Counted from the stretch's first letter, positions 8,132 to 38,716 are shown. The stretch: DNA of 64,000 nucleotides from Candidatus Latescibacterota bacterium (GCA_965204375.1 OZ241986.1:3616001-3680000), one strand, 5' to 3'. Notes: generated by a model not told the origin, from the letters alone. Program-made: numbers and translations.

Positions 8132-8203
8132 AGCACAAATCCTTCTGTTGAGATAAGGGCGCGATGACCGTCAAGAGCACCGTTGCCATCTAAAATTTGC
8201 ATA

Positions 8204-9515: not shown

Positions 9516-9578
9516 TATTCATTTTTCCTCTGTCGTGACGAAATTACTTGAGATGGCAATGATGGCGAAATTTTCGTT

Positions 9579-10481: not shown

Positions 10482-10585
10482 ATCAAGTCCATTTCTATAG
10501 AGACTGAATGAGAGCGTAATCTATACTGTGGTCAGAGGATAGCGATGTTGGTGTTACTTGAATACAGTAAGAGGCACTTTAAAAT

Positions 10586-12081: not shown

Positions 12082-12092
12082 TTTCCATCCTC

Positions 12093-14456: not shown

Positions 14457-15378
14457 AGTTATCCTCCCAACATATCATTTTAAATTTGCACCTTTGACAA
14501 TTACCAGGGTAGATAGTGACGTCAAAATCTTCAGGTTTGAGATCCGAAGGCTTGTTATTATCGACCGCGGAGACCATATCATTAATACTTTTCCCGATAT
14601 AATCTTCTAACTTGTGAATATCTTCTTCTGTGAGTTGATACTCTCTCAGAGTGTTTGTCAGTAATTGCACTTCTGCTAGTTCGATATCGGTTTCAGCCCA
14701 CCTATCAAGAGAGGGAAAATATGAGTGAGGTTTGCATCTTTTGAGTGCTAGAGCATAGACTCCCAACTGCAACCAAGCTTCTTGTAGGGCAAATGTATGC
14801 ACTTTCCAATCGACAATTAGCGGGGCACGATTATTGTAGAAGGCCAGTACGTCAGGAATAGCTCGAACTGTATTCTCGAAGAAAGGGAACTGTAGAATCC
14901 TCTGTGCAAATAGTCCGTCTGCTTGAGCTAACTTTTGTAGCAGGACTTCCTGACTATATAGATTCTCAATGGCCTGCAAGACTTCAATTCTGGCTTTATC
15001 TAATTGATCTGTTGGGATTGAACCATCATAGACTATCGCTTGAAATGCCACAAAATCTGGATCTTTGAGGTTAGTAGTAGGAGAAAGTAGATCATTTTCC
15101 AACCCAAATTTTAACTGTTTTTCGAGTTGATGTACCGCTTCGTTTTGTAGTTGATCCTTTGAAGGCACACGCTTATATCTTAGCCCTTTAAGTAGGGATT
15201 CTGATAAGACTTCATCAACTATTAACCCTCTCCAAGCACTGACCGAAACTAATTTTGACAAGCGATAAGCTAAATGCCGGTCAGGAGACTTAGCTCTTGC
15301 ATTTGCAAATGTCTTCTGAAAGAACCATTTTCTTGGACAACCTCGGAAATTATAGTTGTCCGAAACTGACCATATCAT
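14443..15378 (-). CDS. Cas4/AddB-like PD-(D/E)xK nuclease with predicted Fe-S cluster
   Basis: N-terminal CPRKW, IPD..., IVDWK, QLGVY and C-terminal CQRCKFKMIC (1+3 Cys pattern). Confidence 0.85.
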   Translation of the reverse strand: MIWSVSDNYNFRGCPRKWFFQKTFANARAKSPDRHLAYRLSKLVSVSAWRGLIVDEVLSESLLKGLRYKRVPSKDQLQNEAVHQLEKQLKFGLENDLLSPTTNLKDPDFVAFQAIVYDGSIPTDQLDKARIEVLQAIENLYSQEVLLQKLAQADGLFAQRILQFPFFENTVRAIPDVLAFYNNRAPLIVDWKVHTFALQEAWLQLGVYALALKRCKPHSYFPSLDRWAETDIELAEVQLLTNTLREYQLTEEDIHKLEDYIGKSINDMVSAVDNNKPSDLKPEDFDVTIYPGNCQRCKFKMICWEDNYERP

Positions 15379-15731
15379 TATTCCTTCCTCCGATTTTTTT
15401 TTAATCGTAAAAAGTCCAAATACTCAATCAGCGCTTCCTGTTCTTCTTCACTTGTTGCTCCGAGTCTTGCAACGAATGCTGTTTCCTTATTTTGTTCTTG
15501 ATGATCGGGCATTGGGTATCCTGCCATTGTCATTATCGAAGCATATGGCACCTGATACAATTCGCTCAACTTAAACAGAATTTTGGGAGAAGGAGTACGG
15601 ATTTTGCCACTTTCTAATTGGCTAAGGTAAGCATTGGAAATTTCGGTTTCTTTTTCAACTGCTCTGAGAGTGTAGTTTTTCGATTGTCTCATAGACTTCA
15701 GGTGTGCTCCGAGTTCGTTTAAGTCAGGCAT
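15378..15731 (-). CDS. XRE-family HTH transcriptional regulator
   Basis: LKSMRQSKNYTLRAVEKETEISNAYLSQLESGKIRTPS; RBS AGGAGAG before ATG 15731. Confidence 0.92.
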   Translation of the reverse strand: MPDLNELGAHLKSMRQSKNYTLRAVEKETEISNAYLSQLESGKIRTPSPKILFKLSELYQVPYASIMTMAGYPMPDHQEQNKETAFVARLGATSEEEQEALIEYLDFLRLKKNRRKE

Positions 15732-15770
15732 GTTTTCTCTCCTGCTGATCGTTTGATTCAACAATTCTTT

Positions 15771-15808
15771 TGCTAATTATATCAAGCATTGCTAAATTTG
15801 TCAAGCAT
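15771..15808 (-). promoter_or_regulatory. consensus sigma70 promoter overlapped by two TGCT-N10-AGCA operators
   Basis: Minus strand reads TTGACA (15804-15799), 17 bp spacer, TATAAT (15781-15776); palindromes at 15771-15788 and 15790-15807. Confidence 0.85.
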
Positions 15809-16097
15809 TTCAGATAAAAAATTTTCGATTCCTAAAATCATTTAAACTCTAACTTCATATTTTACATACTATTTGACTGAGGTATATTAGTTGGAAAAAA
15901 GGATACTGTTGCGAGAATTTTGAGTCTTGATGCCTTTTTGTTTGACATTCGACTTCGGTTCATATACATTTCAAATCCAATGGGGACTTGGTTTCCTGCT
16001 CTCCGGGAAAATTAGAGGATACATCTCCGGATTTTGTAGAAATGGTCTTAAAAAAAGCATTCCAGAAATAGACTAAAGACAATAAGTTAAATTGGGT

Positions 16098-16174
16098 GGG
16101 CGATTAGCTCAGGTGGTTAGAGTGCTTGCTTGACATGCAAGAGGTCACTGGTTCAAGTCCAGTATCGCCCACCA
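16098..16174 (+). tRNA. tRNA-Val(GAC)
   Basis: 77-nt cloverleaf: GGGCGAT/ATCGCCC acceptor stem, CTTGC-TTGACAT-GCAAG anticodon arm, GGTTCAAGTCC T arm, encoded CCA. Confidence 0.97.
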
Positions 16175-16182
16175 TTAAAAAC

Positions 16183-16216
16183 AATGGGTTACGCAAATTG
16201 ATGCGTAACCCATTTT
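16183..16216 (+). terminator. intrinsic terminator after tRNA-Val
   Basis: 13-bp stem AATGGGTTACGCA/TGCGTAACCCATT followed by T residues. Confidence 0.8.
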
Positions 16217-16260
16217 CCTTTGATGCCCATCTGGATGCAGTCTTTCAAGGAATTCTGAAC

Positions 16261-16897: not shown

Positions 16898-17716
16898 TTA
16901 ATCCCCTTCAGAAAGTATTTCAGCAATTTTATCCAGATATGCTTTCAGGGACAAACCGTGACTTCTTGCCAGAATCCCCAGCGTATCCACTTTTGTCCGT
17001 TCTCCCTTTTCGATTCTGCGCACATGGCGTTCCGAAAGGCCCTGAATATCGGCTTGCTTAAGCCCACACTGTTTTCGAAATGCGGCAACAGCCTCTCCGA
17101 ACCGAATGTCAGACATCAATCTTTCCCGATCCTTTTGCTCCCGCCACATATCATCTTTCAGGTAGCGAACAGCATCCAGGTCGATGTGTACATCAGCCTC
17201 AGGCCAGTGAATATAACTGCCTTCGCTGGAGATGGTAAATGAAGAACGCTGTTTTTCTGGTATGCTCTCGAATGCGAGCATTTCATCAAACCCAACTCTG
17301 AACAAGGTATGATCACAGGCCACGACAAAAAGCTCATCATCAATAACCTGTGCAGTGGCAATTAGCTGATCCGGACATCCAAGACTCCAGGCCGTAAGCA
17401 CGCGCTTTGGCACATCCTTATCTGAATGCACAAGAATGTTTCGGGTCATTCTCAGTTTAGCTGCATAAAGCATCTGCGGTAAAAACTGAGCATTGTGGTC
17501 TTCCCGGACAAAAAGGGTTCGAAGATGGTTTCGGTGATTGGCAGCACGCACAAATTCAGTAACAACAGGCAGATCGGGAACAGAAGTGAGCACAAAAATA
17601 TCCCGAGAATTTATCCTTCCCAAGTCTGGCTTCCGAAAAACCCTGAAAGAACGCGGAATGATGTCATCGCTGAATGGGTCTTGAGCCCAGACGGTCATAT
17701 TAGCAGTCTTTGACAT
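16898..17716 (-). CDS. DUF2442 + XRE HTH antitoxin-like protein
   Basis: FTISSEGSYIHWPEADVHID (DUF2442-like) and C-terminal HTH (RKQCGLKQADIQGLSERHVRRIEKGE); RBS AAGGAG before ATG 17716. Confidence 0.75.
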   Translation of the reverse strand: MSKTANMTVWAQDPFSDDIIPRSFRVFRKPDLGRINSRDIFVLTSVPDLPVVTEFVRAANHRNHLRTLFVREDHNAQFLPQMLYAAKLRMTRNILVHSDKDVPKRVLTAWSLGCPDQLIATAQVIDDELFVVACDHTLFRVGFDEMLAFESIPEKQRSSFTISSEGSYIHWPEADVHIDLDAVRYLKDDMWREQKDRERLMSDIRFGEAVAAFRKQCGLKQADIQGLSERHVRRIEKGERTKVDTLGILARSHGLSLKAYLDKIAEILSEGD

Positions 17717-24917: not shown

Positions 24918-25523
24918 ATGTCTAAAAATTCACCTGAAAATCAAGTCCTGGAACTGGCACAGCAAGGACTCTTGAGAGTTTGCGATCTGACTTCCCGGGG
25001 CCTTCATCCCGAATATCTGCGACGGCTGTATCAGAAAGGACTGGTGCGACGGGAGGGAAGAGGCCTGTACATTGCAGCCAATGCCGAGATTTCGGTACAC
25101 TATGGTCTGGCGCAAGTAGCAAAGCGCATTCCTCACGGAGTGATTTGTCTGCTGTCAGCTTTGAGCTTTCACGAAATTGGCACACAGCTACCGCACCAGG
25201 TCTGGATAGCCATTGACCGCAGAGCAGCGAAGCCAAAGATGCAATTTCCTCCTCTGAGAGTGATGCGGTTCTCCGGTACTGCACTGACTGAAGGGGTCGA
25301 AACGTATCGGATTGAGGGCGTTCCCGTTCAGATTTTTAACCCCGCCAAAACAGTTGCAGACTGCTTCAAATACCGCAACAAAATCGGTCTGGACGTCGCG
25401 CTTGAAGCATTGAAAGAATGCATTCGCGACCGTCGCACCACAATGGACGACCTCTGGCATTTCGCACAAATCTGTCGAATGACCAACGTGATGCGGCCCT
25501 ATATGGAAGCTATGGTGGCATGA
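24918..25523 (+). CDS. abiEi: type IV TA antitoxin, AbiEi family
   Basis: wHTH GRGLY, GVICLLSALSFHEIGTQLP, KTVADCFKYRNKIGLDVALEAL; TTGACA-16-TATACT promoter just upstream. Confidence 0.88.
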   Translation: MSKNSPENQVLELAQQGLLRVCDLTSRGLHPEYLRRLYQKGLVRREGRGLYIAANAEISVHYGLAQVAKRIPHGVICLLSALSFHEIGTQLPHQVWIAIDRRAAKPKMQFPPLRVMRFSGTALTEGVETYRIEGVPVQIFNPAKTVADCFKYRNKIGLDVALEALKECIRDRRTTMDDLWHFAQICRMTNVMRPYMEAMVA

Positions 25524-25645: not shown

Positions 25646-25674
25646 TTGACATATACTGAACATATGTATATTAT
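25646..25674 (+). promoter_or_regulatory. sigma70-like promoter for the methyltransferase operon
   Basis: TTGACA-17bp-TATTAT; contains ATATAC...GTATAT inverted repeat. Confidence 0.55.
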
Positions 25675-25828: not shown

Positions 25829-27127
25829 ATGGGGAAAAGGGGTAAGAACAAGGACAACAAAGATCCAAATCTTTTTATTGATCTGTTTGCAGGTTGCGGG
25901 GGGTTGTCTCTTGGACTCATGCTCGCTGGCTGGAAAGGGCTATTTGCAATAGAAGGAAATAGGGATGCATTTGAAACACTTAGCCATAACCTGATTAATG
26001 GCAACCGTGACATGTGTTATGAGTGGCCATATTGGTTACCTAAAAAAGCCTACGAGATAAATGCCTTCATAAAGGAGTATAGAAGTCAAATCTCCAAGTT
26101 GCGGAACAAGGTCTTACTCATTGCCGGTGGTCCTCCTTGTCAGGGGTTTTCCTTATATGGTAAACGAAACAAAACAGATCCTAGAAATTGGTTGTTTCGG
26201 CATTATCTCGATATAATAAAATTGGTAAAACCTTCCTTTATTCTTTTGGAAAACGTGAGAGGTATAGATGTAGAATTCGGAAAAAAAAGACGGCAGACCA
26301 CAAATAAAAACGGTGTTGGACGACCACCAAAGTCGTTTTCCAAACTTATTAAGGAATGTCTTGAAGGTGATTACGAAATCCATGCGGGACTCATCAAGGC
26401 AGTAGACTTCGGTGTACCGCAGTTGCGTCCACGCTATATTATGCTGGGAATTGATAGAAATCTCTTGAAGGGTAACAATACACAAATTGATCCATTTGAA
26501 CTGATTGAAGATTATAGGCTATCGTTTCTCAATGAAAAAAAACTTCCGATAGACAGACCTGTCAATGTAAAAGAAGCTATTTCAGATCTGGAGACACACG
26601 GTAAGGCATTAATCGACTGCGTTGATTCCCCCAGATTTAAGCAGATTGATTATGATTCTCCCCAAACATATTATCAAGAGTTACTGCACGGTAATCTTAA
26701 CGGCGTCGCACCAAATAGTCTCAGATTACCTAAGCATAGAGATAAAACTGTCAAGCGATTTTCAACAATACTCAACACCTGTAGACGTGGAGTTCAGCTA
26801 TCCCAGGAGGATAGAGAGCGTCTCGGTATCAAAAAGCAACGAATCGTTGCCCTGAACGAAAAACGACCCTCCCATACAATTACCACATTACCGGATGATA
26901 TTCTGCATTACTCCGAACCCAGGATTTTGACCGTAAGAGAGTCCGCACGCTTACAATCCTTTCCCGATTGGTTTGCCTTTAAAGGAAACTACACCACAGG
27001 AGGTCATAGGCGTGTTAAGGATTGTCCACGCTATACTCAGGTAGGAAATGCTGTGCCTCCGTTCATTGCCGAAATATTGGGCAAAGTTGTGAGTGAAATG
27101 ACTGAACGACTGTTACCGACCAATTGA
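25829..27127 (+). CDS. DNA (cytosine-5) methyltransferase
   Basis: DLFAGCGG, GGPPCQGFS, ENV, PQLRPR, RESARLQSFPD, QVGNAVPP. Confidence 0.96.
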   Translation: MGKRGKNKDNKDPNLFIDLFAGCGGLSLGLMLAGWKGLFAIEGNRDAFETLSHNLINGNRDMCYEWPYWLPKKAYEINAFIKEYRSQISKLRNKVLLIAGGPPCQGFSLYGKRNKTDPRNWLFRHYLDIIKLVKPSFILLENVRGIDVEFGKKRRQTTNKNGVGRPPKSFSKLIKECLEGDYEIHAGLIKAVDFGVPQLRPRYIMLGIDRNLLKGNNTQIDPFELIEDYRLSFLNEKKLPIDRPVNVKEAISDLETHGKALIDCVDSPRFKQIDYDSPQTYYQELLHGNLNGVAPNSLRLPKHRDKTVKRFSTILNTCRRGVQLSQEDRERLGIKKQRIVALNEKRPSHTITTLPDDILHYSEPRILTVRESARLQSFPDWFAFKGNYTTGGHRRVKDCPRYTQVGNAVPPFIAEILGKVVSEMTERLLPTN

Positions 27128-29271
27128 TGATTGGTATTTCTTCTGAAAGAATTCTCATGCCTAAAAACAAGAACCCCTGGATTGAAAAATTACTGTCTTG
27201 GCACGGACACGATCAAGGTGGGGTAAGTGTACCCTTTAATGACCGTGGGGGAAATCCTCTTCGAGACGAACATGGTGATCCCGAAGTTATCGAAACAAAT
27301 CTAATAAAAAGGCTGAGAGATTTAGCACGAGATATCGCGGAAGGGACAGAAGCACCCAGATGGATTTTCCTCGTGGGTGGCCCGGGCAACGGGAAATCTG
27401 AGGCAGTTCAGGAATTTCTTTATACCCTCGATAGGGAACTTCAATGTGATGGAAAACTGGTTGGGATTCTTAAACAAAAATTCTCTCCTGCTCCACTTGT
27501 CCCATGGAATGTGGAAGTCAACAGTGATGATTCTGGCCTACCCGCTCTCTTCAAAGAAAAAATACAAAGATTGATTGTTGTGCAAGATGCATCCGCAAGT
27601 AACAATCCTCGTTCTGACGCAGCTAATGAGATAGTTAATAAAATTGCAGATTTGGCGACGCATCCCCCATCTCTGCTCCTACCTGTATTCATTTGTTGTA
27701 TCAATAGGGGACTACTAGCCAGAGCTCTCACAGTTGCTCACAAAGTCTGGGGTTCAGGCAATGAAGTGGTTAGGATCATTGAGGCCTTGATCGAAGCTAC
27801 TGCGATGAGACAAGAAACCTTATCAGAAAACAAAGATAGACCTCCATGTTGGCCCTTAAATCTGGACATATCTGAGGTAGAAAAACAGGTATGCTGTTGG
27901 CCGCTTGACGTCGAAAGCTTGCTTCTCCCAGAGAATCATGGTGGATCCAGCATTTCGCCCGTGGAACAAATAATAGAAAAAGCGATTGTGGAGAATGAAT
28001 GGGAAGTATCTGGACGCTGTGCAGATTGCGATAGCGCAGATCTGTGCCCATTTCGACAAAATGCAATCTGGTTAAGGAATGAGGAAACAAGAGACAATCT
28101 ACTTTCAATTCTGCGCCGTGGAGAATTGGCTATTTCTCAGCGATGGAATTTTCGTGACACATTTTCCCTAATTGCGGGAACTCTTGTTGGGAATTGGAAT
28201 GATTTCGCTGAATTTGATCATCCCTGCGAATGGGTTCACGAAAAGGTAGTAAGTATTTGTCAGCAGGTGCAAACACGGCCTGAAAAGGCGGTTGCTCCTA
28301 CGATTGCACTTGTTTCGCGTTTGTATCCCAATGCTATGTTTCCAGTACCTATGTTCTTGAACTTACAAGAAAAAAATCTCACAGAAAAAATAACTCTTGA
28401 GGTAAAAAACAGTATTACCTTACTGGAAAAACAGCCTCAGACCCACATTCAAAACTTACTCAGGCATTCCATATCACCGAGGTTAGATCCTGCATTTCTT
28501 TCTCCTCTCAAAGAGGATCATCCAATTAGAAAACTTGAGAATAGTTATAGCCAATCGGTAGAAATCGGAAACCAGAGCTGGGATAGCTGTTCGGGTATGA
28601 GCAAGGTAGAGAGTATTTTTTTTACTTTACTAAAAAGTGCAGAGGATGAATGGGACCCACTCAGTCGTGAATCAGCCCAGATTCTAGAAGTCCTCAGATT
28701 TTTAGGGGTTGTAGGCGTTTCCTTAGCGAAACGATCCGTGGGGGCAAGATTAGGTTATCATACAAATGAGGATTACCTATTAGACTACGAGGCAGTTATT
28801 CGCGATGAAGATGCTCTTTACGATTTGACTCAAGAGTTGAGGTCGTTACTTGGCGCAGGAGGATTCCATTTTAACGCATTAGAGAGCTTTGGACAACCAC
28901 GGTCGGAAGATGATTGGTTAATTGCACTCCGGGGAGATACCATGCCAATCGCCCCTATAACACCTGCTCCAATGGGAGGGCGCGATCTACCGGCGCATGA
29001 TTTTCCATTCATTAAAATAGTGAATTATTCTATACCACTTACATTCGACTTGTATATGGCACTAAGACTCAGACAGGACGGATGTGAAAGTAGCAGTTTA
29101 CCGGCAAGTGTTCGTGCTGCAATTGACCGTATTCGGCACCTACATGCCGGGCAACTTTGTCGTGACCAAGAGGCTTTTGTTAACGGGAAAGTCTTTTACG
29201 AAATAAAAGACTATGGAAAAATAGATTTACCCCGAGAAGGGGAATCTCCCAGACTAAGAGAAATGAGATAG
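27124..29271 (+). CDS. P-loop NTPase with Cys cluster, DndF/DptF-like
   Basis: Walker A GGPGNGKS, VVQDAS, CINRGLL, CADC....CPF..N, WNFRD; overlaps the MTase stop. Confidence 0.6.
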   Translation: MMIGISSERILMPKNKNPWIEKLLSWHGHDQGGVSVPFNDRGGNPLRDEHGDPEVIETNLIKRLRDLARDIAEGTEAPRWIFLVGGPGNGKSEAVQEFLYTLDRELQCDGKLVGILKQKFSPAPLVPWNVEVNSDDSGLPALFKEKIQRLIVVQDASASNNPRSDAANEIVNKIADLATHPPSLLLPVFICCINRGLLARALTVAHKVWGSGNEVVRIIEALIEATAMRQETLSENKDRPPCWPLNLDISEVEKQVCCWPLDVESLLLPENHGGSSISPVEQIIEKAIVENEWEVSGRCADCDSADLCPFRQNAIWLRNEETRDNLLSILRRGELAISQRWNFRDTFSLIAGTLVGNWNDFAEFDHPCEWVHEKVVSICQQVQTRPEKAVAPTIALVSRLYPNAMFPVPMFLNLQEKNLTEKITLEVKNSITLLEKQPQTHIQNLLRHSISPRLDPAFLSPLKEDHPIRKLENSYSQSVEIGNQSWDSCSGMSKVESIFFTLLKSAEDEWDPLSRESAQILEVLRFLGVVGVSLAKRSVGARLGYHTNEDYLLDYEAVIRDEDALYDLTQELRSLLGAGGFHFNALESFGQPRSEDDWLIALRGDTMPIAPITPAPMGGRDLPAHDFPFIKIVNYSIPLTFDLYMALRLRQDGCESSSLPASVRAAIDRIRHLHAGQLCRDQEAFVNGKVFYEIKDYGKIDLPREGESPRLREMR

Positions 29272-29275
29272 GAAA

Positions 29276-30814
29276 ATGCCACTCCAAGATTTTTATGACT
29301 TGCTGTGGACAAAAGAACATGGTGCCTACGATAAGTCGATTCTTCGTCCGGTTGCACCGGAGTATACGACTGGTGAAGTACTCCTAGGAGCGACTTACCG
29401 AAAACTTCTCCTGGGACAACAAGAAGCAAACGTAGACTTGAATGAGATCGATACGCTTCCTGATAAGTTAGCACCTCAACAGCAGGCTTGGAAGTCCATT
29501 CTTAAGTCGAGAGAAGGATTGGCAAGTCCATCCTTATCTGGTCAGAGAAGTACTCCTCCACCGCAGTTGATGCCACTGGTGCCAGAAATCGCGCGTTATG
29601 GATGTGTATTAGGTGGAAGACCAAGAAGTAGATGGGACCCAGGTAATCTTTTGTTATCTACATTAGGATCAGGTCTAGGTCCTAATGGGATTGAATCCAT
29701 TATAGAACGCTTGAGGGAGGTCTTGGCAATTACCGATCAAGAAGATGTGTTTGCAAAATTTGTAGAAAACTCACTGGATGAAATCGCAGATGGACCTAAA
29801 GATGATCTGCTGTCACTTGATAATTTAGAAGCACTGGCCTGGAGAGCTTCCAACGACCTAATACGGACACCGGCTGAACAATTTTCCGAGGATCTTAATA
29901 GTATAATAGGGTTGAAAGAGCATTTGACACGTCGGCAGTGGACCGTGTTACTTGAAGCATTACTAAGAATTGGACTTGCAACTCACATGCTGTGGCTATG
30001 TCGTGCAAACAAGGTTGTATGGCACATGGTCCTGAAAGTTCTCGGCTCTGATACCCCTGCGCCTGATGCATTGGCTATAGAAAAGCAATGTTGGGAAGGA
30101 CATGACAATATTGATCCCTTGTTGGAACTCGGTCGTGACGGTATACCTTTTATAAAGAAAAGACTCCAAGAATTTATCCAGGCAAGGTTAGGATTAAATC
30201 TTTTGCTACATGCATTGGAAGATGCTGACCATAGTTGGCCAAATCCCATTGGAGTTTCCCCAGATAAAAACCCTCAACCTGCTCCTGAATTGATAGCAGC
30301 ATTCTTGAGCCATGTTGAGAGCCACAAATCGTCCATACAACAGATCGTTCAACAAACGCTCCACGAACCGTCCCTACGTAACGCAGCACAAACAATCGCC
30401 GATTCTAATCCTCGGCTCCTCGGCTCTCAGTCGGGTCCAACTAAGAATCTATACGAGTTCTTACGCTATAGCCTTAGGCAATTACAACCTATGGAGTCAG
30501 AGATGAGCTCGTATGATCAGTCTTACGTTTTATATAAAAAAAATAGAAGGCAGAACAATTCACCCTGGCCCGTCCAACCAGGCCCTGCAGCATTGATCAT
30601 GCTTGTCCACTCTTGCTGCAAATCATTAGGAAGAGTGCCTGCAAGCATTGATTACTTTAGAAATTATTTGGCAAATTATGGAATCTTGGCACCGGCCGGA
30701 GAATTGCAGGGTGGCCAGACAGGTAGAGACCTAGAGCGACTTGGGCTTGTCGTTGATAGCCCAGATGCAGGGGGAGGCCGTCTGCTGGTTTATCCTTTTA
30801 AGAGATCAGCATAA
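29276..30814 (+). CDS. hypothetical protein, DndG/DptG-like
   Basis: 512 aa; C-terminal LERLGLVVDSPDAGGG resembles the DptG E..G....SDSG terminus as I recall it; sits between F-like and H-like genes. Confidence 0.5.
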   Translation: MPLQDFYDLLWTKEHGAYDKSILRPVAPEYTTGEVLLGATYRKLLLGQQEANVDLNEIDTLPDKLAPQQQAWKSILKSREGLASPSLSGQRSTPPPQLMPLVPEIARYGCVLGGRPRSRWDPGNLLLSTLGSGLGPNGIESIIERLREVLAITDQEDVFAKFVENSLDEIADGPKDDLLSLDNLEALAWRASNDLIRTPAEQFSEDLNSIIGLKEHLTRRQWTVLLEALLRIGLATHMLWLCRANKVVWHMVLKVLGSDTPAPDALAIEKQCWEGHDNIDPLLELGRDGIPFIKKRLQEFIQARLGLNLLLHALEDADHSWPNPIGVSPDKNPQPAPELIAAFLSHVESHKSSIQQIVQQTLHEPSLRNAAQTIADSNPRLLGSQSGPTKNLYEFLRYSLRQLQPMESEMSSYDQSYVLYKKNRRQNNSPWPVQPGPAALIMLVHSCCKSLGRVPASIDYFRNYLANYGILAPAGELQGGQTGRDLERLGLVVDSPDAGGGRLLVYPFKRSA

Positions 30815-30849: not shown

Positions 30850-33800
30850 ATGAAAGCATTAGCTGAAAAATTTATTGAGTTCATAAAAGATGCGTTAGAA
30901 ATCAGGCTTTTCCGCGGTACAGATAACCGCGTTCAACCCGTGATCTTGGGACCACCTACCGATGTGATGGAAGAAGTTTTTAATATCATGACCAATAATA
31001 ATACCAGTGATTGGGTGGTGGGTGATCCTGAGAATCCAATTGATATTGTAGTGCTCTTGGTATACAGAGATATAGTGAGCAGTCAACCTGACAGTATGGG
31101 AAAGGTTCTAAGTCAAAAATGTAACTGGGATTACGCGGTCTCCATTCGAAATAGCGGTCAACCCTGTGTTACCTTGGTAATACCTAGAGCCTGGGATTCA
31201 CGCCCTGAGTCTATTGCAAATGCTACGGAAACAATTGGAAGTCCTAGAATATCCGATGATAAGGACTTCTATAAAAAAGATCCCTGGCCTTTCTTAGTTG
31301 GTAGTATATCCAATACCTCGAACGTTTCAGAAACCGAGATCCACGACCTATTGTCCATAGTACAAAAAGAAGCCTTGAATCGTACTGAGCAAAGGGAATC
31401 AGCACTTTGGGACGTTGTAGATCAGCTCATCCAGGCAACCCAAGCAGAAGATATTGTTAAATCGGTTGGGTTACCAAATTTAGGAAACCAGAATTTAACC
31501 CAGAAGACACTGAAAGACTCAAATGACATCCTGTCCGATTTAGCAAAATTCTGTGCGAAAACCGGGCTCAGGAATGCTGAGAATGAGCTTAGGGAAGGTG
31601 CAATTTCTCTTTGTATAGAAAGACCACTAAAAGAACTTTTCTCCCATCTCCGTGATAGTGCAGGGTCTGGGACTACATTTAATGATTGTCCTGCATGGTA
31701 TTTTCGTCCAGTCTCGAATAGTTCTGATTGGTGGGATCATCTTCCATATGAAAAAATACAGAAGTTACTTGAAGAGATCGGGGAGAGCAGACCTACGGGG
31801 AGATTGGAACTTAGTTGTCAAAATGCATTAAATCGCGATGACCTGATTAAAGATGAACCATTAATCGTAGAGAATGAAGTTGATTTGCAGGTTAGGGATA
31901 ATAAGGGTGATATTCCACGGTCAGTCGATTTTTCCAGGAAAATAGGAAGGCAATATGATTCAATCTATCCAGAATACCAGAACGGAAACTTTATTGACGC
32001 ATCTGTTCCAGACCATCAGCAGGTTGTTGCTTACAAGACCGACAGTGACCTGTATCGTCCTGGGACATTAAAATTGATTTCTTTATCCTCGTTTCAATGC
32101 CGAGGTCATGCCCGAATATCTGACGCAGTAAGCAATCCACCTCCTGTTTTACAACGTGGAAGCGGTGTGTTTGAACAAGAGATCACGCTTCAGAGAATAG
32201 GCACACATGAAATGGTTGTGTTCAGTGCCCCAGAGGTAAGTGTTACTACTATTGAAAAGCTCTCAGAGGACTCCCCCCACCTATCCTCCCCAGATAGGCC
32301 AGCCACGTTTACCATTGATGTTGAGCACAATGACATAATAAATATTTCTACCTTAGGACAAGATGGTCAAACACTTGGAAACTGGACCCTACGAATTCTC
32401 GTTGAAGAATCTTTAGAGAGTGCTCCTCGTACACGTTTCGAGTCCCTCGTAAGGGCACACCAAGAGAACCGAGGGAACGCAAGACCTGTGAGACCTACTG
32501 TTTCTGAGGTAAGACGTTTGGAGGAATCCTATCTCCAGAGTCAGGAAAGTTGGAAGGGAATGGTAGCCTGTTGGTCGACAACAACCAAGGTTTTTGAAAA
32601 AATTGATTGGACACAGCGTTGCATAGGTAATATCCCTTTGACAGAAATCTTATCACCTGACTTAGACAAAATAACACCCCCGACATCCTATCTTTCTAAA
32701 AGGGAAGACATAAGGCAGAAACTGGAGACCGCACATCGAACAATCGGCGAGATTAATCTTGATGACCAAAACTTGATTGCAACTGCAACTGATTATCTGA
32801 ATGATTATTTGGTCTGGTTAAAACAAAAACCCGAGGTAGCGGTCTGGACGGATTGCATTGCTATTCATGCACCTTCACAAAATATACAAGCAGGGCAAGT
32901 GATAGCAACCGGAGAACCAATTGGCCTTTTACTTTCACCCCTGCATCCCCTACGTTTTGCTTGGCACTGCCATTCCCAGCATGTGTTGCAAGAATCACTT
33001 TCAACGAAACGGTGTCCAGCAGCAGGATTGCTGGACCCATCGGCTTGCCCTGCCTTGTTCTCGCTACCTCTTTACAGAGGAGAAACACAGGCAATTTGGC
33101 GAACGTTTGTGACAGTAGGCTGCAACGAGCCACATTGGTTATTGCTGTGGAATGTCGATCATATTGGGGATTCTGAAGAAAAAAGATGCCTGATTTCCAT
33201 CCTGATAAATCTTGGTATTATACCCACGGGGTTAAGTGGTGGATTCACTGGCTCCCAAACCCAGAGGGCCCTAGAGGAAGTTTCGAGTATTCTATCTGCC
33301 AGAGCATCCCTGAGAGTGGGATTTATCGGTGGTAGTGAAGAATCCTTTAACTGTGTTGATGGCCTCATCGAATGGTGCACTAAACACTTCCACTCGGATG
33401 AAGAAGAAGATAAAATCAGTTTTCCCAGTTCCTGCGAAGTTTATGATCTTAGGGATAATCCTTCCTATCCTTCCGCAGCGAAAATAGCAGATTTATCTGA
33501 AGAAACAAGAGAACGGGTTAGATGGTTTTCAATAGGGACGAAGCAGCAATCACACAATATGGACTTAGTGGTTCTCGACCAAGTAGGTACGCTTGATCCA
33601 AATGGTATTCGCTCAACCTCGAAATCGTTAATCGCTAATGGGGCTCTCATGCGGTTCAATACTCGCCAAGACATAGGAAACGGTAGCATTTTACAGGATT
33701 CTCGTGCTTCCAGGTACGACGGATCATTATCTGGAATTGAGGAAAAAATAGTAAAGACGACAACCACATTAGAAAATCTTGCAAAAGAAAAAGGCGATAT

Positions 33801-36072
33801 CTCACACATAGAATTTAGACCTAATCAACAAGCCATAGGATCGCGCCTTGATCAATCCATGTTTGTTGCGGCCACATCAAGCCAGATTGATCCCGCCTGT
33901 TTCATTCGGGGAGCAGGAACACATGATGCTTATTTGTGGGATTACGAACTACCTGAGACATTAGGATTTGATGAAAACCAAGCAGGATATTATCTAATTG
34001 CCAAGCCATCCGATTCCATGAAAGATGCGATCCTTGCATCTGCAAGATTGATAACTAGTGCTTCCCTAAGGGCAGAGTCTCTCCTGGAAGAGATTTCAAA
34101 ACGAGGAATACCTGTGCTTAAGCAGCTGGCAAGCGGAGGGACGAGTGCGCGTGGTGAACTAGGCGTATTATTAGCTGTTCGCCTGATCCAAGACGCTTTT
34201 CGACAGGGTGGAAGTGGTATACGACTTCCTGTCATAACTGATGAATGTATGCATGTGTTATTGCCTGTAGATTCCTACTGGAAACCACTCTCTCAATTTC
34301 GTAAAATCCTCGATCCAAAGAGTTCCCACGAAAGACCGGACATTCTGGTAATTGCTATCCACTTTCCTAAAAATGAACAAGTAAGAGTCAAAGTTAAGAT
34401 AACCCCTGTTGAAGTTAAATTCCGTAACAGCACAATGCCTAATGGAGAAGTAAGACAGGCCCTGAGACAGGCAGAAAATTTGGGTGGATTGTTAAGAAAA
34501 ATCTGGGGATCAACTCCAGAAAACGAGCTATGGAGTGTATGTTCAAAATCCCTGCTTTGTCAATGTTTAGAACATGCTTTTCGTATCTATGCTGATTCCA
34601 ATATCCACGGTCTATCAGACGATGAATGGACAAAAAAACACGAAGATGTTCTACACGATATCCTTACGGGACAGGCTTCGATAATCGTTAATCAGGCTGG
34701 CCGGTTGCTTGTATTTGACCAATCAAATAATACCTCCATAAATGATATGGATGGCGACGGTCAGAGCGATACCGCCATTTTATCTTCTAAGGATGCCGAT
34801 TACTTACTCAGTGGTAACGGTAGCTTATCTCCAAAAGCACAAAATGTAGTACGACTCTTGGACTTTTCTTTTTCTGAGTGTATTTCACAACAAACTTCAC
34901 CAAGTAGTACTGGGACAGGTGATAATAGATCAGAAGTTATCGAGCCTATAGAAACAAGGGCATCAAGTGCGGATTTAGCGGGAGAAATTACTGTTCAAGA
35001 ACCTGAAGAAACAAACCAGAGCGGAGATCAGATATCCGAACTCCAAGAAAAAAAAGATAGTACTTCTCCTGTCCCGTCCGAAGTAAGAGAATTAGTTCGG
35101 CAAGCCTTTGATGGATTTATTGGTAATGAACCTGCTGTAAAACGTGTTTCTAATGACTTGTTACGCGCCCTGATTGAAAAACCACCCCACTTGCCCAAAA
35201 ACTACCTTTTTACGGGTTTACCGAGTACCGGAAAGACAGAATTTGCCCGCAGGATAGCGAAAGCACTCAGATTGCCGTTTGTCCAGTTAGACGGACGCGG
35301 GGTAGGCACGCGGGAACGGCTCTTCGATCTCGTAAAGGGAGAACTCAATCAACAGGATCTCTCAATATCACAGGTGGGACAACAGTCAGGGCTACCCTTG
35401 ATAGAATATCCTCCTCTCATCATTTTTATTGATGAAGTGCATCTGGTGCCAAAAAGTGTCCAAGAAAGCCTACTTACCATGTTAGAAGCCATGGATAGAA
35501 CTGTTATCCTATCTGATCAAGTTGCCAAGATGAACAAGGCCACTTTCCTGTTTGCTACCACGAGAGCATCGCAAGTGGACGCGGCTTTTCGCAGTCGGTG
35601 TGCGGAAGTCCAACTCAGGGAGTACACGAAATCCGAGGTAGCAGAAATCCTTCGCCGAAGAATTTCTGAAGAATGGCCTGAAGACATTCATCTGGAAATT
35701 GCAAAACTCGGTCGTTGTGTTCCTCGTGTAGCCATTGAGCTTGCACGAGAACTGGAAACGGAAATAACCGTATCGGAACATCCGGAGAGGAGTTTAGAAG
35801 AGCACTTAGAGGAAGTACAAAAAGCCAGAGAAATAGACGTTTTGGGATTAACCCTCACAGATCGCCAATATCTCACTGTGTTGGAAAAGGAAGGGAAACC
35901 TGTTGGTGAGAAAGCTATTATCAACATCCTCGGAGCCGTGGACAAGGATAGGATAATAAACGAAATTGAGCCCTTTCTACGGAGATTAGGATTTATAAAA
36001 CTTGGTGGGCAAGGAAGAGAAATAACACCTGAAGGTATAGATTACATCCTTTCAAAAAGACGTGAAGAATAA
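30850..36072 (+). CDS. large DndH-like protein: PD-(D/E)xK nuclease motif fused to a C-terminal RuvB-like AAA+ motor
   Basis: RPDILV...PVEVKFR near aa 1160-1190; from aa ~1418 FDGFIG, GLPSTGKT, IFIDEVH, ATTR, FRSR, VPRVA, PVG..., IEPFL..LGFI....QGR.IT as in RuvB. Confidence 0.75.
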   Translation: MKALAEKFIEFIKDALEIRLFRGTDNRVQPVILGPPTDVMEEVFNIMTNNNTSDWVVGDPENPIDIVVLLVYRDIVSSQPDSMGKVLSQKCNWDYAVSIRNSGQPCVTLVIPRAWDSRPESIANATETIGSPRISDDKDFYKKDPWPFLVGSISNTSNVSETEIHDLLSIVQKEALNRTEQRESALWDVVDQLIQATQAEDIVKSVGLPNLGNQNLTQKTLKDSNDILSDLAKFCAKTGLRNAENELREGAISLCIERPLKELFSHLRDSAGSGTTFNDCPAWYFRPVSNSSDWWDHLPYEKIQKLLEEIGESRPTGRLELSCQNALNRDDLIKDEPLIVENEVDLQVRDNKGDIPRSVDFSRKIGRQYDSIYPEYQNGNFIDASVPDHQQVVAYKTDSDLYRPGTLKLISLSSFQCRGHARISDAVSNPPPVLQRGSGVFEQEITLQRIGTHEMVVFSAPEVSVTTIEKLSEDSPHLSSPDRPATFTIDVEHNDIINISTLGQDGQTLGNWTLRILVEESLESAPRTRFESLVRAHQENRGNARPVRPTVSEVRRLEESYLQSQESWKGMVACWSTTTKVFEKIDWTQRCIGNIPLTEILSPDLDKITPPTSYLSKREDIRQKLETAHRTIGEINLDDQNLIATATDYLNDYLVWLKQKPEVAVWTDCIAIHAPSQNIQAGQVIATGEPIGLLLSPLHPLRFAWHCHSQHVLQESLSTKRCPAAGLLDPSACPALFSLPLYRGETQAIWRTFVTVGCNEPHWLLLWNVDHIGDSEEKRCLISILINLGIIPTGLSGGFTGSQTQRALEEVSSILSARASLRVGFIGGSEESFNCVDGLIEWCTKHFHSDEEEDKISFPSSCEVYDLRDNPSYPSAAKIADLSEETRERVRWFSIGTKQQSHNMDLVVLDQVGTLDPNGIRSTSKSLIANGALMRFNTRQDIGNGSILQDSRASRYDGSLSGIEEKIVKTTTTLENLAKEKGDISHIEFRPNQQAIGSRLDQSMFVAATSSQIDPACFIRGAGTHDAYLWDYELPETLGFDENQAGYYLIAKPSDSMKDAILASARLITSASLRAESLLEEISKRGIPVLKQLASGGTSARGELGVLLAVRLIQDAFRQGGSGIRLPVITDECMHVLLPVDSYWKPLSQFRKILDPKSSHERPDILVIAIHFPKNEQVRVKVKITPVEVKFRNSTMPNGEVRQALRQAENLGGLLRKIWGSTPENELWSVCSKSLLCQCLEHAFRIYADSNIHGLSDDEWTKKHEDVLHDILTGQASIIVNQAGRLLVFDQSNNTSINDMDGDGQSDTAILSSKDADYLLSGNGSLSPKAQNVVRLLDFSFSECISQQTSPSSTGTGDNRSEVIEPIETRASSADLAGEITVQEPEETNQSGDQISELQEKKDSTSPVPSEVRELVRQAFDGFIGNEPAVKRVSNDLLRALIEKPPHLPKNYLFTGLPSTGKTEFARRIAKALRLPFVQLDGRGVGTRERLFDLVKGELNQQDLSISQVGQQSGLPLIEYPPLIIFIDEVHLVPKSVQESLLTMLEAMDRTVILSDQVAKMNKATFLFATTRASQVDAAFRSRCAEVQLREYTKSEVAEILRRRISEEWPEDIHLEIAKLGRCVPRVAIELARELETEITVSEHPERSLEEHLEEVQKAREIDVLGLTLTDRQYLTVLEKEGKPVGEKAIINILGAVDKDRIINEIEPFLRRLGFIKLGGQGREITPEGIDYILSKRREE

Positions 36073-36164
36073 ACATAATGTTTTAAAAAAAGTGCGAAAT
36101 ATTGTCAAAATTGTGATGGTACTGAGCACAGGCTTGAGTATAGCTGACTGGAGCAATCTGGCGC

Positions 36165-36290
36165 GGTTAGAGTGCTTGCTTGACATGCAAGAGGTCACTG
36201 GTTCAAGCCCAGTATCGCCCACCATTAAAAACAATGGGTTACGCAAATTTATGCGTAACCCATTTTCCTTTGATGCCCATCTGGATGCAG
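36165..36290 (+). repeat. second copy of tRNA-Val 3' portion, terminator and downstream sequence (att-like)
   Basis: Lacks the tRNA 5' end; identical to 16115-16240 except 2 nt. Confidence 0.92.
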
Positions 36291-36326
36291 CCTTTTTCGG
36301 TTGTAACGTGTGCTATAAAGAGTTTC

Positions 36327-36782
36327 TCAATTATTGCCAATGAGCATATCATCTACAATGTTAACGATCTGGGGAACGCTTGACACCAGAAAGATAATAT
36401 TCAGCGACCGGGGATCAATCTGTTTAGGGATTTGTATGGCTGTGCTCTCAATGTTATTGCATATAGCCTTAGCATCTGGTGTGTCATCGACAAAAGGATC
36501 AATAACCTGTATAAGCCGTCTCTCTGGGGTCTCGGTCTGCACAGTCAGTTGCTCCACAAAATGCTTATCCTTATCTGTTTTCCATCGTGCGATATTCCAG
36601 GTTTCTGAAATAGCTACCTGAATCTGATTTGAACTTTCCTCCTGCATCGCCTGATTATACAGATCCAAGACTTCCTCAGCAAAATCATAATCTTTCTTAA
36701 ATGGAATTAGATTCTTCATCAATTGGCTGTAAGAACATATGTAAACTCCCATCAGGACGACGGTATTGAATGTTGGGATCAT
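36327..36782 (-). CDS. hypothetical protein
   Basis: 151 aa ORF overlapping the stop of the upstream gene by 4 nt. Confidence 0.55.
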   Translation of the reverse strand: MIPTFNTVVLMGVYICSYSQLMKNLIPFKKDYDFAEEVLDLYNQAMQEESSNQIQVAISETWNIARWKTDKDKHFVEQLTVQTETPERRLIQVIDPFVDDTPDAKAICNNIESTAIQIPKQIDPRSLNIIFLVSSVPQIVNIVDDMLIGNN

Positions 36783-38116
36783 AGTTTTTCTTTTAATTCA
36801 CTGATCACTTTATTCACCTTGGACCAGAGAGTAGTGCTCCCATGTAAGCCTCCTGCCAACCCGATGCTGATGAAGCCATCACCAGAATCATCAGGATGTC
36901 TTGGCAGCTCAAGTATCTCATAGCCCGATACTGAATGACGTACAGATTTTAAAGCTAAATCCCTTAGTACTTTCACTTCATTGTCAAGCTTTTGGTCATC
37001 CCATATACTTAAATCCGAAAATGAAAAATTCATAGGTGGTGGTTTGAATTCTTCATGGAAAAACGGTAAGATCAATCTCATAATGTTATCTAGATCTTTC
37101 GAGAAACCCCTTGTTGTTAGAGGCGGTTTGTAAAGCACTACAAGCTTCACAGGAACAAGAAGCGGCATCAACGTTGAGAATTTCTCTCTATATGCATGCA
37201 TCGATTCCTTTGCTTCTTCCCTAAAATTCTTGCTCTCACCTTCACTGACTGGAACAGTGGGAAGCTGAATTTTGATCGGTGAGTGTACGATCCATTTTGC
37301 AAGTCCGGCTGAATATTTCTGTACAAACTGCTCAAGATTTGGAAATGTGCCTAGACCACGATGCAAGGTTCCTGACGCTCGGTATAGAATACTGGCCTCC
37401 CGGATGCCCAATTCACCCTGTCTTAAGAATGCGTTCTGGTCCTGCATCCGGCTGTATTTAACGAGATTGTCATACGCGTTTTTTCCTAATGATTTGATAT
37501 AATAATCCTTATCAGACTTAATACTGCTTAAGTGAGAGAATTCATCAAGGTTATCATCATCGAAGTCTAATCTGAAACTGCTATAGTCATCTATATATTC
37601 GTTATAATTACCACTCAATATCTCTTCCGCTAATTTCAAGTCCTGAAGAAAATAACCCATTGGCATAAACTGACCTGATATGCCTGATTCTTTTCCACCT
37701 AGCGAGTAGCTGATTGCAAGATACTTTATCTGACGATCATCCTGATAAACCAACCCTTTTCTCGTAATACCACTGTCACGTAAAGGCTTGCCAAAGAGAT
37801 CTAAGATATTTTTCGTTGCGGTATGGATGTGAGGGGGATTGGGAGAGGTAGTATTGATCCACACTTCGGCAGCTACGCTTCCCCTAAACGACCTTTTGCA
37901 TCTTTCTTTCATTTGACCCAAAATGGTAGTCTGAAAGCTAATTTTTTCTGCCATCCTCATTGCTCTCTTAGATTTGGGTTCCTCGGCAATGTCATAATAA
38001 CCCCACCCCCGAAACCGGCGCCATTGGTGACGTCCGATCTGTGCTTTAGGCGTCTTAAGAAATTCGGATTTGCTGCCTGAGCTGTCAAATAAGCTTCTGA
38101 AATTCATCATCTTCAT
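36779..38116 (-). CDS. hypothetical protein with two RusA-like segments
   Basis: KNILDLF...VYQDDRQIKYL and YKPP....KDLDNIMR resemble RusA motifs. Confidence 0.5.
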   Translation of the reverse strand: MKMMNFRSLFDSSGSKSEFLKTPKAQIGRHQWRRFRGWGYYDIAEEPKSKRAMRMAEKISFQTTILGQMKERCKRSFRGSVAAEVWINTTSPNPPHIHTATKNILDLFGKPLRDSGITRKGLVYQDDRQIKYLAISYSLGGKESGISGQFMPMGYFLQDLKLAEEILSGNYNEYIDDYSSFRLDFDDDNLDEFSHLSSIKSDKDYYIKSLGKNAYDNLVKYSRMQDQNAFLRQGELGIREASILYRASGTLHRGLGTFPNLEQFVQKYSAGLAKWIVHSPIKIQLPTVPVSEGESKNFREEAKESMHAYREKFSTLMPLLVPVKLVVLYKPPLTTRGFSKDLDNIMRLILPFFHEEFKPPPMNFSFSDLSIWDDQKLDNEVKVLRDLALKSVRHSVSGYEILELPRHPDDSGDGFISIGLAGGLHGSTTLWSKVNKVISELKEKL

Positions 38117-38120
38117 ATTC

Positions 38121-38716
38121 TCATTTACCTGAATATCCTACAGAAAGTATTTCAGCAATTTTATCCAGATAGGCTTTCAGGGACAATCCGTGACTTCTTG
38201 CCAGAATCCCCAGCGTATCCACCTTTGTCCGTTCTCCCTTTTCGATTCTGCGCACATGGCGTTCCGAAAGACTCTGAATATCGGTTTGCTTAAGCCTACA
38301 CTGTTTTCGAAATGCGGCAACGGCCTCTCCGAACCGAATGTCAGACATCAATCTTTCCCGATCCTTTTTTTCGCGCCACTCATCATCTTTCAGGTATCGA
38401 ACAGCATCCAGGTCGATATGTACATCAGCCTCAGGCCAATGGATATAACTGCCTTCGCTGGAGATGGTAAATGAAGAACGCTGTTCTTCTGGTATGCTCT
38501 TGAGTGCAGGCATTTCTTCAAAGCCAACTCTGAATAGGGTATGGTCACAGGCCACGACAAAAAGCTCATCATCAATAACCTGTGCAGTGGCAATTAGCTG
38601 ATCCGGACATCCAAGACTCCAGGCCGTGAGCACGCGCTTTGGCACATCTTTATCTGAATGCACAAGAATGTTTCGAGTCATTCTCAGTTTTGCCTCATAA
38701 AGCATCTGTGGTAAAA
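38121..38716 (-). pseudogene. 5'-truncated second copy of the DUF2442-HTH gene
   Basis: Near-identical to the 3' two-thirds of 16898-17716; homology ends about 38716 at a hairpin; no DUF4160 partner. Confidence 0.8.

Follow-up and report, generated by a model that had tools for sequence, protein, structure and literature searches.

The gene here called H (nucleotides (nt) 30850–36072, plus strand) is an open reading frame (ORF) of 1740 amino acids (aa) in a 64,000-nt stretch of DNA from Candidatus Latescibacterota bacterium (GCA_965204375.1 OZ241986.1:3616001-3680000), the whole of which is referred to as the window. Its product comprises a large N-terminal body followed by a putative nuclease, a linker and a RuvB-like AAA+ motor, and its gene closes a compact run of four: those for a C5 cytosine methylase, F, G and H. 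H is probably the effector of a horizontally acquired, methylation-protected restriction cassette of the DndFGH/SspFGH type, in which the RuvB-like module would act as an equivalent duplex-DNA pump and not as a Holliday-junction device. The module is read as an equivalent duplex-DNA motor because it alternates with HerA/FtsK domains on nearly identical bodies and because the cassette includes no RuvA partner. The overall logic of the cassette remains that of restriction-modification-type defence.

A previous interpretation made from the sequence alone (the sequence-only reading) had placed a RuvB motor, end to end, at the C terminus of H behind a linker rich in Ser, Thr and Glu, with an RPD...EVK nuclease motif upstream; its starting point, nt 34300, corresponds to residue 1151 of H. 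Both elements are confirmed. The module spans residues 1411–1740 (nt 35080–36072, plus strand) and is supported by Pfam, NCBIfam, PDB matches and alignment. Its motifs in the translation are AFDGFIGN (residues 1419–1426), the Walker A sequence GLPSTGKT (1456–1463; nt 35215–35238, plus strand), the Walker B sequence IFIDEVH (1525–1531; nt 35422–35442, plus strand), ATTR (1569–1572), FRSR (1580–1583), PRVA (1625–1628) and EPFL..GFI..GREIT (1707–1726), and all of the Walker A, Walker B, sensor 1 (ATTR), arginine finger (FRSR) and sensor 2 (PRVA) elements are present in the order seen in RuvB. With regard to the Pfam families that make up RuvB, the winged-helix family RuvB_C (PF05491) scores 51.9 bits (cut-off 24.7) over residues 1665–1733 (nt 35842–36048, plus strand) and the AAA family 48.7 bits, whereas the RuvB_N family, at 22 bits, does not reach its cut-off of 27. 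The two best NCBIfam matches are the RuvB equivalogs (TIGR00635 / NF000868; 98.5 and 86.4 bits), and the next family is DnaX at 36 bits; DnaX and HolB, which are clamp-loader proteins, rank next after RuvB. RuvB accounts for 18 of the 19 sequence matches in the PDB (best, 3pfi_A, E = 8.6e-16), and a profile of the H family improves the best RuvB match to E = 6.4e-23. When the fused modules were aligned by MAFFT with five housekeeping RuvB proteins, they were colinear with RuvB from the N-terminal IG[NQ] motif through the large domain and lid to the winged helix. The aligned pairs (H module/RuvB) include F.GFIGN/..[FI]GQ, G(L/P)PSTGKTE/GPPGLGKT, FIDEVH/FIDEIH, ATTR/ATTR, FRSRC/(L/M)R(D/S)RF and VPRVA/TPR(I/V)A, together with the winged-helix segments GLT..D..YL, PVG, EPFL..LGFI and GR.IT. 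Residues K1462, D1528, E1529, T1570, T1571, R1583 and R1626 are invariant in all 30 aligned members of the H family.

Judged by these comparisons, the H module resembles RuvB and yet is not RuvB. Its scores are far below the equivalog cut-offs (98.5 versus 282 and 86.4 versus 299 bits), it belongs to a separate clade, and scans with Pfam and NCBIfam gave no match to the RuvA families in any of the cassette proteins. In contrast to RuvB, it has lost the C-terminal Q..LF tail and is joined to a 1400-aa nuclease body or, at one other locus (L029), stands alone beside a DNA methylase.

The phylogeny of the modules gives the same picture. In a tree of 24 RuvB-like modules (20 on this body, two on divergent bodies and two stand-alone) and five housekeeping RuvB proteins, with RarA-like proteins as the sole outgroup, the modules form a single clade (Shimodaira-Hasegawa-like approximate likelihood ratio test (SH-aLRT) support 97) beside the clade of housekeeping RuvB (97), and the RarA-like proteins lie outside (99). 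These modules form a clade of their own that is sister to RuvB relative to the RarA-like proteins, and the branches that separate the two are long (1.9 and 2.5). The RuvB-like modules are therefore an old sister family of housekeeping RuvB, and recent capture of the ruvB gene of the host is ruled out by their separate, old clade. A genuine housekeeping ruvB (445.5 bits) is present elsewhere in the source genome. Five genomes with the fusion were tested for housekeeping RuvB: all four bacterial genomes have the gene, and none was found in the fifth, a Thermoplasmata metagenome-assembled genome (MAG) that carries the fusion. Modules that are almost the same are carried by Bacillota, Chloroflexota, Planctomycetota and Acidobacteriota, which indicates horizontal transfer, and the branching order of the modules does not follow taxonomy. 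The two stand-alone members of the clade were observed in Chloroflexota MAGs (L029, 8853–11026; L030, 7902–9182; 363 and ~366 aa, respectively). In L029 an N6/N4 DNA methylase gene overlaps, at its end, with the stand-alone gene, which is also downstream of a DUF5131 gene, so that the link of the RuvB-like clade to DNA methylases extends beyond the fusion.

The fusion itself is real. The protein database contains 191 homologues of H at E <= 1e-3 and, among the 120 listed, nearly all are 1650–1850 aa in length with both RuvB_C and AAA. In addition, metagenome contigs from two runs (X3 and X4) of a study other than the likely source span nt 33800–36194 without gaps and with 3–4 base differences. 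Misassembly, which the sequence-only reading had named as a possible source of error, is ruled out by the more than 100 full-length homologues in independent assemblies and by these gap-free spanning contigs.

The decisive result is that the C-terminal motor is exchanged among relatives of the body. A profile of H residues 560–1345, built from 21 sequences, was compared with 1.84 billion representatives of clusters at 50% identity, and 618 representative proteins were matched at E <= 1e-3, 232 of them at E <= 1e-30. The C termini were typed in the best 150 of the 618, with hidden Markov models (HMMs) of our own making, and after 53 proteins shorter than 1500 aa had been dropped, 97 full-length proteins were kept. 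Among these, 29 have a RuvB-like module, 63 a DptH-type HerA/FtsK domain, three (P0242, P0244 and P0247) a mad8-like HerA domain and two none of these, so that a C terminus of the HerA/FtsK class is found in 66 of the 97. Library scans of five relatives agree with the HMM typing: Pfam DUF87, the HerA central domain, is matched by P0244, P0262 and P0365; TrwB_AAD_bind by P0262 and P0299; the PADLOC DndH models by P0262, P0299 and P0365 at E = 1e-58 to 4e-76 (P0262 is best, at E = 4.1e-76, with a match that starts from its PD motif); and the PADLOC mad8 model, for a HerA-like ATPase, by P0242 (E = 5.5e-13) and P0244 (E = 3.8e-20). The nuclease region of P0244 also matches PADLOC DndH (E = 4.4e-5). 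In a FastTree phylogeny of the body with 98 rows, 60 rows form a HerA-type clade (support 97) and 28 rows a RuvB-type clade (95), within which the three mad8-type proteins are interspersed at three separate places; the RuvB-type protein P0327 is nested in a distant clade of six rows (100), the other five of which are of the HerA type. This tree requires eight changes of the C-terminal label, where the minimum is three, but the exact number of motor swaps is uncertain because the tree contains several long branches and was made by an approximate method. The boundary of the exchange is seen most directly in a comparison of P0088 (RuvB type) with P0242 (HerA type), which are 58% identical over residues 1–1339 and 1–1330, respectively, as far as a DFSFPDC motif before the linker and have no significant similarity past it. 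The motor of H has been exchanged repeatedly at the disordered linker, and the suggestion of the sequence-only reading that a RuvB-like domain had been swapped in for HerA/FtsK is supported by the C-terminal types and by this pair. The relatives with a HerA-type motor share the gene neighbourhood of H. At 80 metagenome loci of this type, F and G are found in all 54 with at least 3.9 kb of upstream sequence, and a methylase in all 32 with room on both sides; of the 63 placements of a Dcm gene that were counted, 44 are same-strand and upstream. None of the 80 loci contains the RuvB-like module.

The cassette begins with the gene for a C5 cytosine DNA methyltransferase of the Dcm type (432 aa; nt 25829–27127, plus strand), which is matched by Pfam DNA_methylase (PF00145; 162.3 bits, cut-off 22), PADLOC MTase_II (E = 7.5e-73) and TIGR00675 (129 bits). 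Its translation contains the sequences FAGCGG, GPPCQGFS, ENV, QLRPR and GNAVPP, which we take to be C5-methyltransferase motifs, among them the S-adenosylmethionine motif and the catalytic cysteine of PCQ, and the enzyme is presumed to be the self-marking module of the system. F (715 aa; nt 27124–29271, plus strand) overlaps the methylase stop by 4 nt and encodes an SspF-like P-loop protein with the Walker A sequence GGPGNGKSE. All 14 members of the F family match the PADLOC SspF model PDLC02793 (best E = 1.9e-9; F of the window, E = 0.0066) and seven of the 14 match a second SspF model, whereas a comparison of F with two DptF sequences by hhalign gave E = 5.9e-4 and a probability of 29%. Residues G85–E93, N194 and R195 are invariant in the F family. 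G (512 aa; nt 29276–30814, plus strand) always lies between F and H and has no match in Pfam, NCBIfam or PADLOC. A lead from the protein atlas that connected G with MAD7 (score 0.93) was unconfirmed, with none of 16 members matched in Pfam. In a set of 26 related genome loci from many phyla, F and G are upstream of H at every locus with sufficient upstream sequence. Of the 19 genome loci that encode a full-length H of the RuvB type, 14 have a methylase homologue, and at the remaining five (L008, L009, L010, L021 and L023) the contig ends in or beside F or G. The four-gene layout is also retained in two divergent variants, L028 and L031. Two of the related loci contain damaged genes: in the Thermoplasmata MAG (L014, 4980–8433) the methylase and F genes are each broken into two ORFs, and in an alphaproteobacterial MAG (L032, 5310–13811) the F-G-H region is fragmented into many short ORFs and is a decayed copy.

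The body of H was modelled with AlphaFold2 (AF2) on an alignment of 44 sequences. The model of residues 1–1000 has a mean predicted local distance difference test score (pLDDT) of 87.5, and that of residues 985–1400 has a pLDDT of 80.1 and a predicted template modelling score (pTM) of 0.79. In these models, an N-terminal α/β domain (residues 1–130) is followed by an all-helical domain (137–310; the two together occupy nt 30850–31779, plus strand), by two tandem β-sandwich domains (316–520; nt 31795–32409, plus strand), and by an α+β and then an α/β region (529–1000; nt 32434–33849, plus strand) that includes an invariant LSPLHPLR(F/L)AW sequence at residues 694–705. The β-sandwich stretch, which is all-β in the model, gave 340 Foldseek matches in the PDB at E <= 1e-3, and the top listed matches are two-domain receptors with immunoglobulin/fibronectin type III-like folds that align over ~190–260 columns. 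These sandwiches dominated the Foldseek search with the whole 1–1000 model, which was uninformative for the remaining domains. A query of the protein atlas with residues 1–1400 of H returned unnamed clusters alone. The linker (residues ~1346–1410; nt 34885–35079, plus strand) is rich in Ser, Thr and Glu and is predicted to be disordered, with pLDDT below 50 at residues 1350–1400.

Between the body and the linker is a putative nuclease domain of the PD-(D/E)xK type (residues ~1085–1340; nt 34102–34869, plus strand), identified from invariant residues and the AF2 model. The RPD motif is at residues 1162–1164 (D1164, nt 34339–34341, plus strand) and the EVK motif at residues 1188–1190 (nt 34411–34419, plus strand), and the 30 aligned members of the family all have E1103, D1164, E1188 and K1190. 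In the model, E1103 is on a helix (1097–1113), D1164 is just ahead of a strand (1165–1171), and E1188 and K1190 are within the strand 1181–1191. According to model and alignment, H thus has the PD-(D/E)xK pattern of a helix with Glu, an Asp at the start of a strand and ExK on the next strand. The best two Foldseek matches of the nuclease model are to the HamA nuclease of the Hachiman system (E = 0.056 and 0.07, probability 0.41 and 0.38), and Bse634I and AgeI appear at E = 0.76; all of these are non-significant, and structural support for the nuclease fold is weak.

These components suggest the following course of events. The methylase would mark the DNA of the host, and F, G and H would assemble on DNA, as DndFGH has been described as doing. 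Where the DNA is unmethylated, the RuvB-like module would oligomerise to form a ring around the duplex and translocate with the energy of ATP, after which the nuclease of H would nick or cut. We infer all of its parts, namely methylation-dependent protection, complex formation, translocation and cleavage, and this is the first of several considerations that weigh against the reading of H as a restriction effector with a duplex-DNA pump. Homology of the body of H to canonical DptH, that is DndH, is not statistically established by the sequence comparisons. When H was compared by hhalign with authentic DptH sequences (two genomes and 18 database relatives), the 20-sequence alignment gave a probability of 2.8% and E = 0.016 and the two-sequence alignment a probability of 3.6%, and HMM-to-sequence searches between H and DptH gave E = 2–10 only, in both directions. 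The NCBIfam DptH model TIGR03237 has no candidate in the source genome at E <= 1 and is not among the NCBIfam matches listed for six members of the H family; a DptH profile has no significant match among 150 body relatives (0/150); and H of the window (P0001) is not matched by the PADLOC DndH and SspH models. Profile comparison of G with DptG showed no similarity, and no relation of G to DndG, DptG or SspG is detectable. The nuclease model has no Foldseek match at E <= 1e-3. To these are added the limits of the C-terminal typing and the body tree that are given above, and the departures of the module from RuvB that are described below.

The sequence-only reading had compared this protein with DndH, a label that has no more than remote justification. 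Similarity is seen only in the architecture and in a series of weak profile matches, and TIGR03237 does not match. A windowed comparison by hhalign gave four best matches of H to DptH that are colinear but below threshold, between residues 8–73 and 13–85, 600–707 and 558–661 (E = 0.0014), 815–949 and 750–875 (E = 0.0043), and 1163–1254 and 1101–1186. The LSPLHPLR(F/L)AW sequence (nt 32929–32964) is the best-conserved stretch common to H and authentic DptH, which has TPxHPLxLAYF at residues ~653–664, and nearly every weak alignment across the two families lands there. Of 21 RuvB-type cores, two match one PADLOC DndH model, in the nuclease region (best E = 0.0013), and one matches a second model. 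Membership of H in the DptH family was not adopted, since the direct profile comparisons are sub-threshold.

The departures of the module from RuvB are relevant to the first alternative, in which it is not a pump at all. Relative to RuvB, the module carries a 20-residue insert ahead of Walker B, and the region from Walker B to sensor 1 is six residues shorter in all fused modules shown; we presume that this shortened region is the site of the RuvA-binding "feature" β-hairpin. Three arginines of the RuvB C-domain contact DNA, according to the accessible part of the published RuvB work, and in our own mapping onto the alignment they would correspond to the RTPRGR segment, the first two positions of which vary in the rows printed, although the GR that ends it is invariant in 30 of 30 members of the H family. 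Because of the insert, the shortened region and the varying arginines, a role in switching or remodelling rather than translocation is conceivable. The module would then be an ATP-driven switch for assembly or licensing, similar to ORC/Cdc6 or a clamp loader, that oligomerises H and gates its nuclease after F and G have sensed foreign DNA or nucleotides. The clamp-loader proteins DnaX and HolB as next-best families, the specificity of the insert to the family, the variation of two of the three DNA-contact arginines and the proposal of DndF, a relative, as a nucleotide sensor (PMC10853773, in the part available) are consistent with such a switch. Against it, no variation is seen in the arginine finger or in sensors 1 and 2, and the three-domain layout of RuvB is retained, the domain with which the module alternates is of the HerA/FtsK class, interpreted as a translocase or pump in the available part of PMC10853773, and translocase activity is reported for DndFGH in that of PMC11662687. 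We consider the switch unlikely.

The second alternative was raised by the sequence-only reading, which had proposed that the effector is aimed at branched intermediates of phage replication or recombination. The module would confer specificity for four-way or branched DNA, and the system would attack phage replication forks or recombination intermediates. It is true that the module is specifically RuvB-like and not a generic AAA+ domain, that it retains the RuvB winged helix with the invariant GR of the DNA-contact hairpin, and that the many additional putative DNA-binding domains of H could in principle stand in for RuvA. However, in the accessible part of the published work on RuvAB it is RuvA, through its domains I and II, that binds the junction, and domain III of RuvA loads RuvB via a β-hairpin that belongs to RuvB's N-terminal domain, whereas no cassette protein matches RuvA and the region before sensor 1, where we place that hairpin, is shortened in all the fused modules shown. 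Furthermore, the domains that the module replaces on nearly identical bodies are duplex-DNA pumps of the HerA/FtsK class, and the fusion is carried by an archaeal MAG, of Thermoplasmata, that is without RuvAB. The proposal is therefore not upheld, and specificity of this kind seems improbable. A more elaborate form, in which the N-terminal DNA-binding domains of H take the role of RuvA and RuvB-type variants load at forks, recombination junctions and packaging intermediates, where they would cleave while causing branches to migrate or forks to regress, we regard as similarly doubtful; if loading on branched DNA were true, it would mean a methylation-gated restriction aimed at DNA structure and not at sequence alone. 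That the cassette serves mainly for selfish addiction (restriction-modification with post-segregational killing) or a modification-dependent system, with a methylase that is not the protective partner of H, is very improbable: its distribution is sporadic and driven by horizontal transfer, a tRNA-Val repeat and an AbiEi-like gene adjoin it, and unrestrained SspFGH is toxic to unmodified cells (PMC8092258, in the part available), but a methylase so strictly linked with F, G and H, and for the most part transcribed in the same direction, suits a protective partner, addiction and defence are not mutually exclusive, and scans with Pfam, PADLOC and NCBIfam detected no modification-reading domain.

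The identification of H as part of a restriction cassette of accessory character is in keeping with its genomic context. A single genome out of 168 from the phylum contained the cassette, which was missing from all 20 further species of the genus, and its GC content is 0.43–0.45 as compared with 0.50–0.56 in the flanks, which encode sulfatases and a BNR protein. A tRNA-Val(GAC)-like copy identified by ARAGORN (nt 36151–36224, plus strand) is located 79 nt past the stop codon of H, and a first copy of the tRNA-Val(GAC) gene is 20 kb upstream (nt 16098–16174). From the D-arm onwards, a single base distinguishes the two copies as far as the 3' end, and the 5' part of the second is divergent. They are part of a direct repeat of 131 nt with 98% identity (nt 16115–16245 and 36165–36295) that consists of the 3' part of tRNA-Val and ~70 nt of flanking sequence, and a second repeat of 300 nt with 94% identity (nt 16900–17199 and 38132–38431) is beyond each copy. 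The copy after H may be the scar of an integration site, and the repeats look as though they bound an island, or two, that had inserted at tRNA-Val; no integrase was identified. The sporadic distribution across phyla, the GC content, the tRNA-Val repeat and the incongruence of the tree show that the cassette is accessory and was acquired horizontally.

Other features of the region are less closely connected with H. A promoter-like site, TTGACA-17-TATTAT (nt 25646–25674, plus strand), with 11 of 12 consensus matches, is ~155 nt upstream of the methylase gene and is a possible promoter of the cassette; the region shows no clear excess of such sites (31, as compared with 22.7 +/- 5.5 in shuffles). 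Between H and the convergent genes that follow, a hairpin with a 13-bp stem (nt 36233–36264, strand unassigned) is a possible bidirectional terminator, where terminator-like sites are likewise not enriched (10 versus 11.3 in shuffles). Directly upstream of the methylase is a gene for an AbiEi-type antitoxin or regulator (nt 24918–25523, plus strand; PADLOC AbiEi, E = 4.5e-85; Pfam AbiEi_4) with no adjoining AbiEii-like toxin gene. No homologue was matched by phmmer at the related loci L007–L032, and the gene is probably outside the system. The three convergent genes (nt 36327–38705, minus strand), for proteins of 151, 445 and 194 aa, are in the same low-GC stretch as the cassette and may constitute another small accessory module. 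The 194-aa protein is a DUF2442 member, the sole family match of the three, and the 445-aa protein (nt 36779–38116, minus strand) has no match in Pfam and no sequence match in the PDB. The lowest GC content of the window (0.39–0.46) is at nt 8000–16000, just upstream of the first tRNA-Val, in a part with minus-strand genes that include an ORF of 787 aa (nt 12093–14456).

The exchange of motors in DndH-type effectors is extended by these results from the HerA/FtsK class to another class of ATPase, the RuvB-like AAA+ proteins, and, where bodies are as much as 58% identical, either kind of motor can take the place of the other at a single disordered linker. Such proteins are natural chimeras with which to ask what the motor contributes (translocation, loading, choice of target) to restriction of the DndFGH/SspFGH type, and the methylase-linked family may prove more tractable, since methylation lends itself to mapping and to supply in trans. 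The modules also define a second, deeply diverged RuvB-like clade, present in bacteria and at least one archaeal MAG, that would be dedicated to methylase-linked conflict systems. In the literature searched, a limited full-text collection, no description of the RuvB variant or of the methylase-linked family was found.

Comparison with known systems places the cassette close to DndFGH/DptFGH and SspFGH; the statements on these that follow are from the available parts of the papers cited. In DndH, an inactive SNF2-type P-loop domain is followed by a helix-turn-helix, two β-sandwiches, a target-recognition domain (TRD), an inactive DAM domain with a TRD, a restriction endonuclease (REase) domain and a HerA/FtsK ATPase (PMC10853773). 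The cassette shares with DndFGH/DptFGH the order of the F, G and H genes and an H protein of ~1700 aa, and the AF2 models suggest that the fold classes of H follow one another as in DndH: α/β, helical, two β-sandwiches, α/β, an REase with D...E-V-K, a linker and a ring ATPase. The two β-sandwiches are the DndH-like domains supported by Foldseek, and the others agree by fold class alone; the region 529–1000 stands where DndH has its TRD and inactive methylase. The colinear matches to DptH, although weak, include the common motif [ST]PxHPLxLA[WY] and the D...E-V-K motif of the nuclease, and close relatives of the body of H carry the DptH-type HerA/FtsK domain. H of the window differs from DndH in that it ends in a RuvB-like AAA+ domain and not in HerA/FtsK. 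DptH itself was found in none of the 168 genomes of the phylum. DndFGH, a restriction module linked to phosphorothioate modification and with nickase and translocase activities (PMC11662687), is often decoupled from dndABCDE and is treated in PMC10853773, as far as that text was available, as lacking a built-in modification module, whereas the modification gene within the cassette encodes a C5 cytosine methylase, in the place of phosphorothioation genes such as dndABCDE.

The F protein is nearer to SspF than to DptF, and as a homologue of SspF it is encoded first of F-G-H, as in SspFGH. SspFGH is likewise a three-gene module that damages unmodified DNA and in which SspH ends in a DNA-translocase-like ATPase (PMC8092258). 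In contrast to SspFGH, the partner within the cassette is a methylase in the place of sspBCD, and its motor is RuvB-like and not FtsK-like; the PADLOC models of SspG and SspH match none of 16 G members and none of 21 H cores, respectively. MADS, an eight-gene N6-methyladenine (m6A) system (mad1-8; PMC13662399; bioRxiv 10.1101/2023.03.30.534895), is also based on methylation, and the mad8 model matches the HerA-like C termini of close relatives of the H body. It differs in that, at the thresholds used, mad8 was the sole PADLOC mad model reported for F, G or H, and its matches, to three of the 14 F proteins, are weak (best E = 0.015). The cassettes may be linked to the MAD7-MAD8 module, a connection that the Pfam scan did not bear out. 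The closest precedent for the motor of H is DndH's acquisition of HerA/FtsK domains. The C-terminal ATPase of DndH was acquired repeatedly from different sources, and the six captured clades described are all of the HerA/FtsK class (PMC10853773; Rakesh, Aravind and Krishnan, NAR 2024); the word RuvB is absent from the main text of that paper. The H family follows the same logic of a body with an exchangeable motor, but the motor captured here is of another ATPase class, AAA+, and the linkage to a cytosine methylase is tight.

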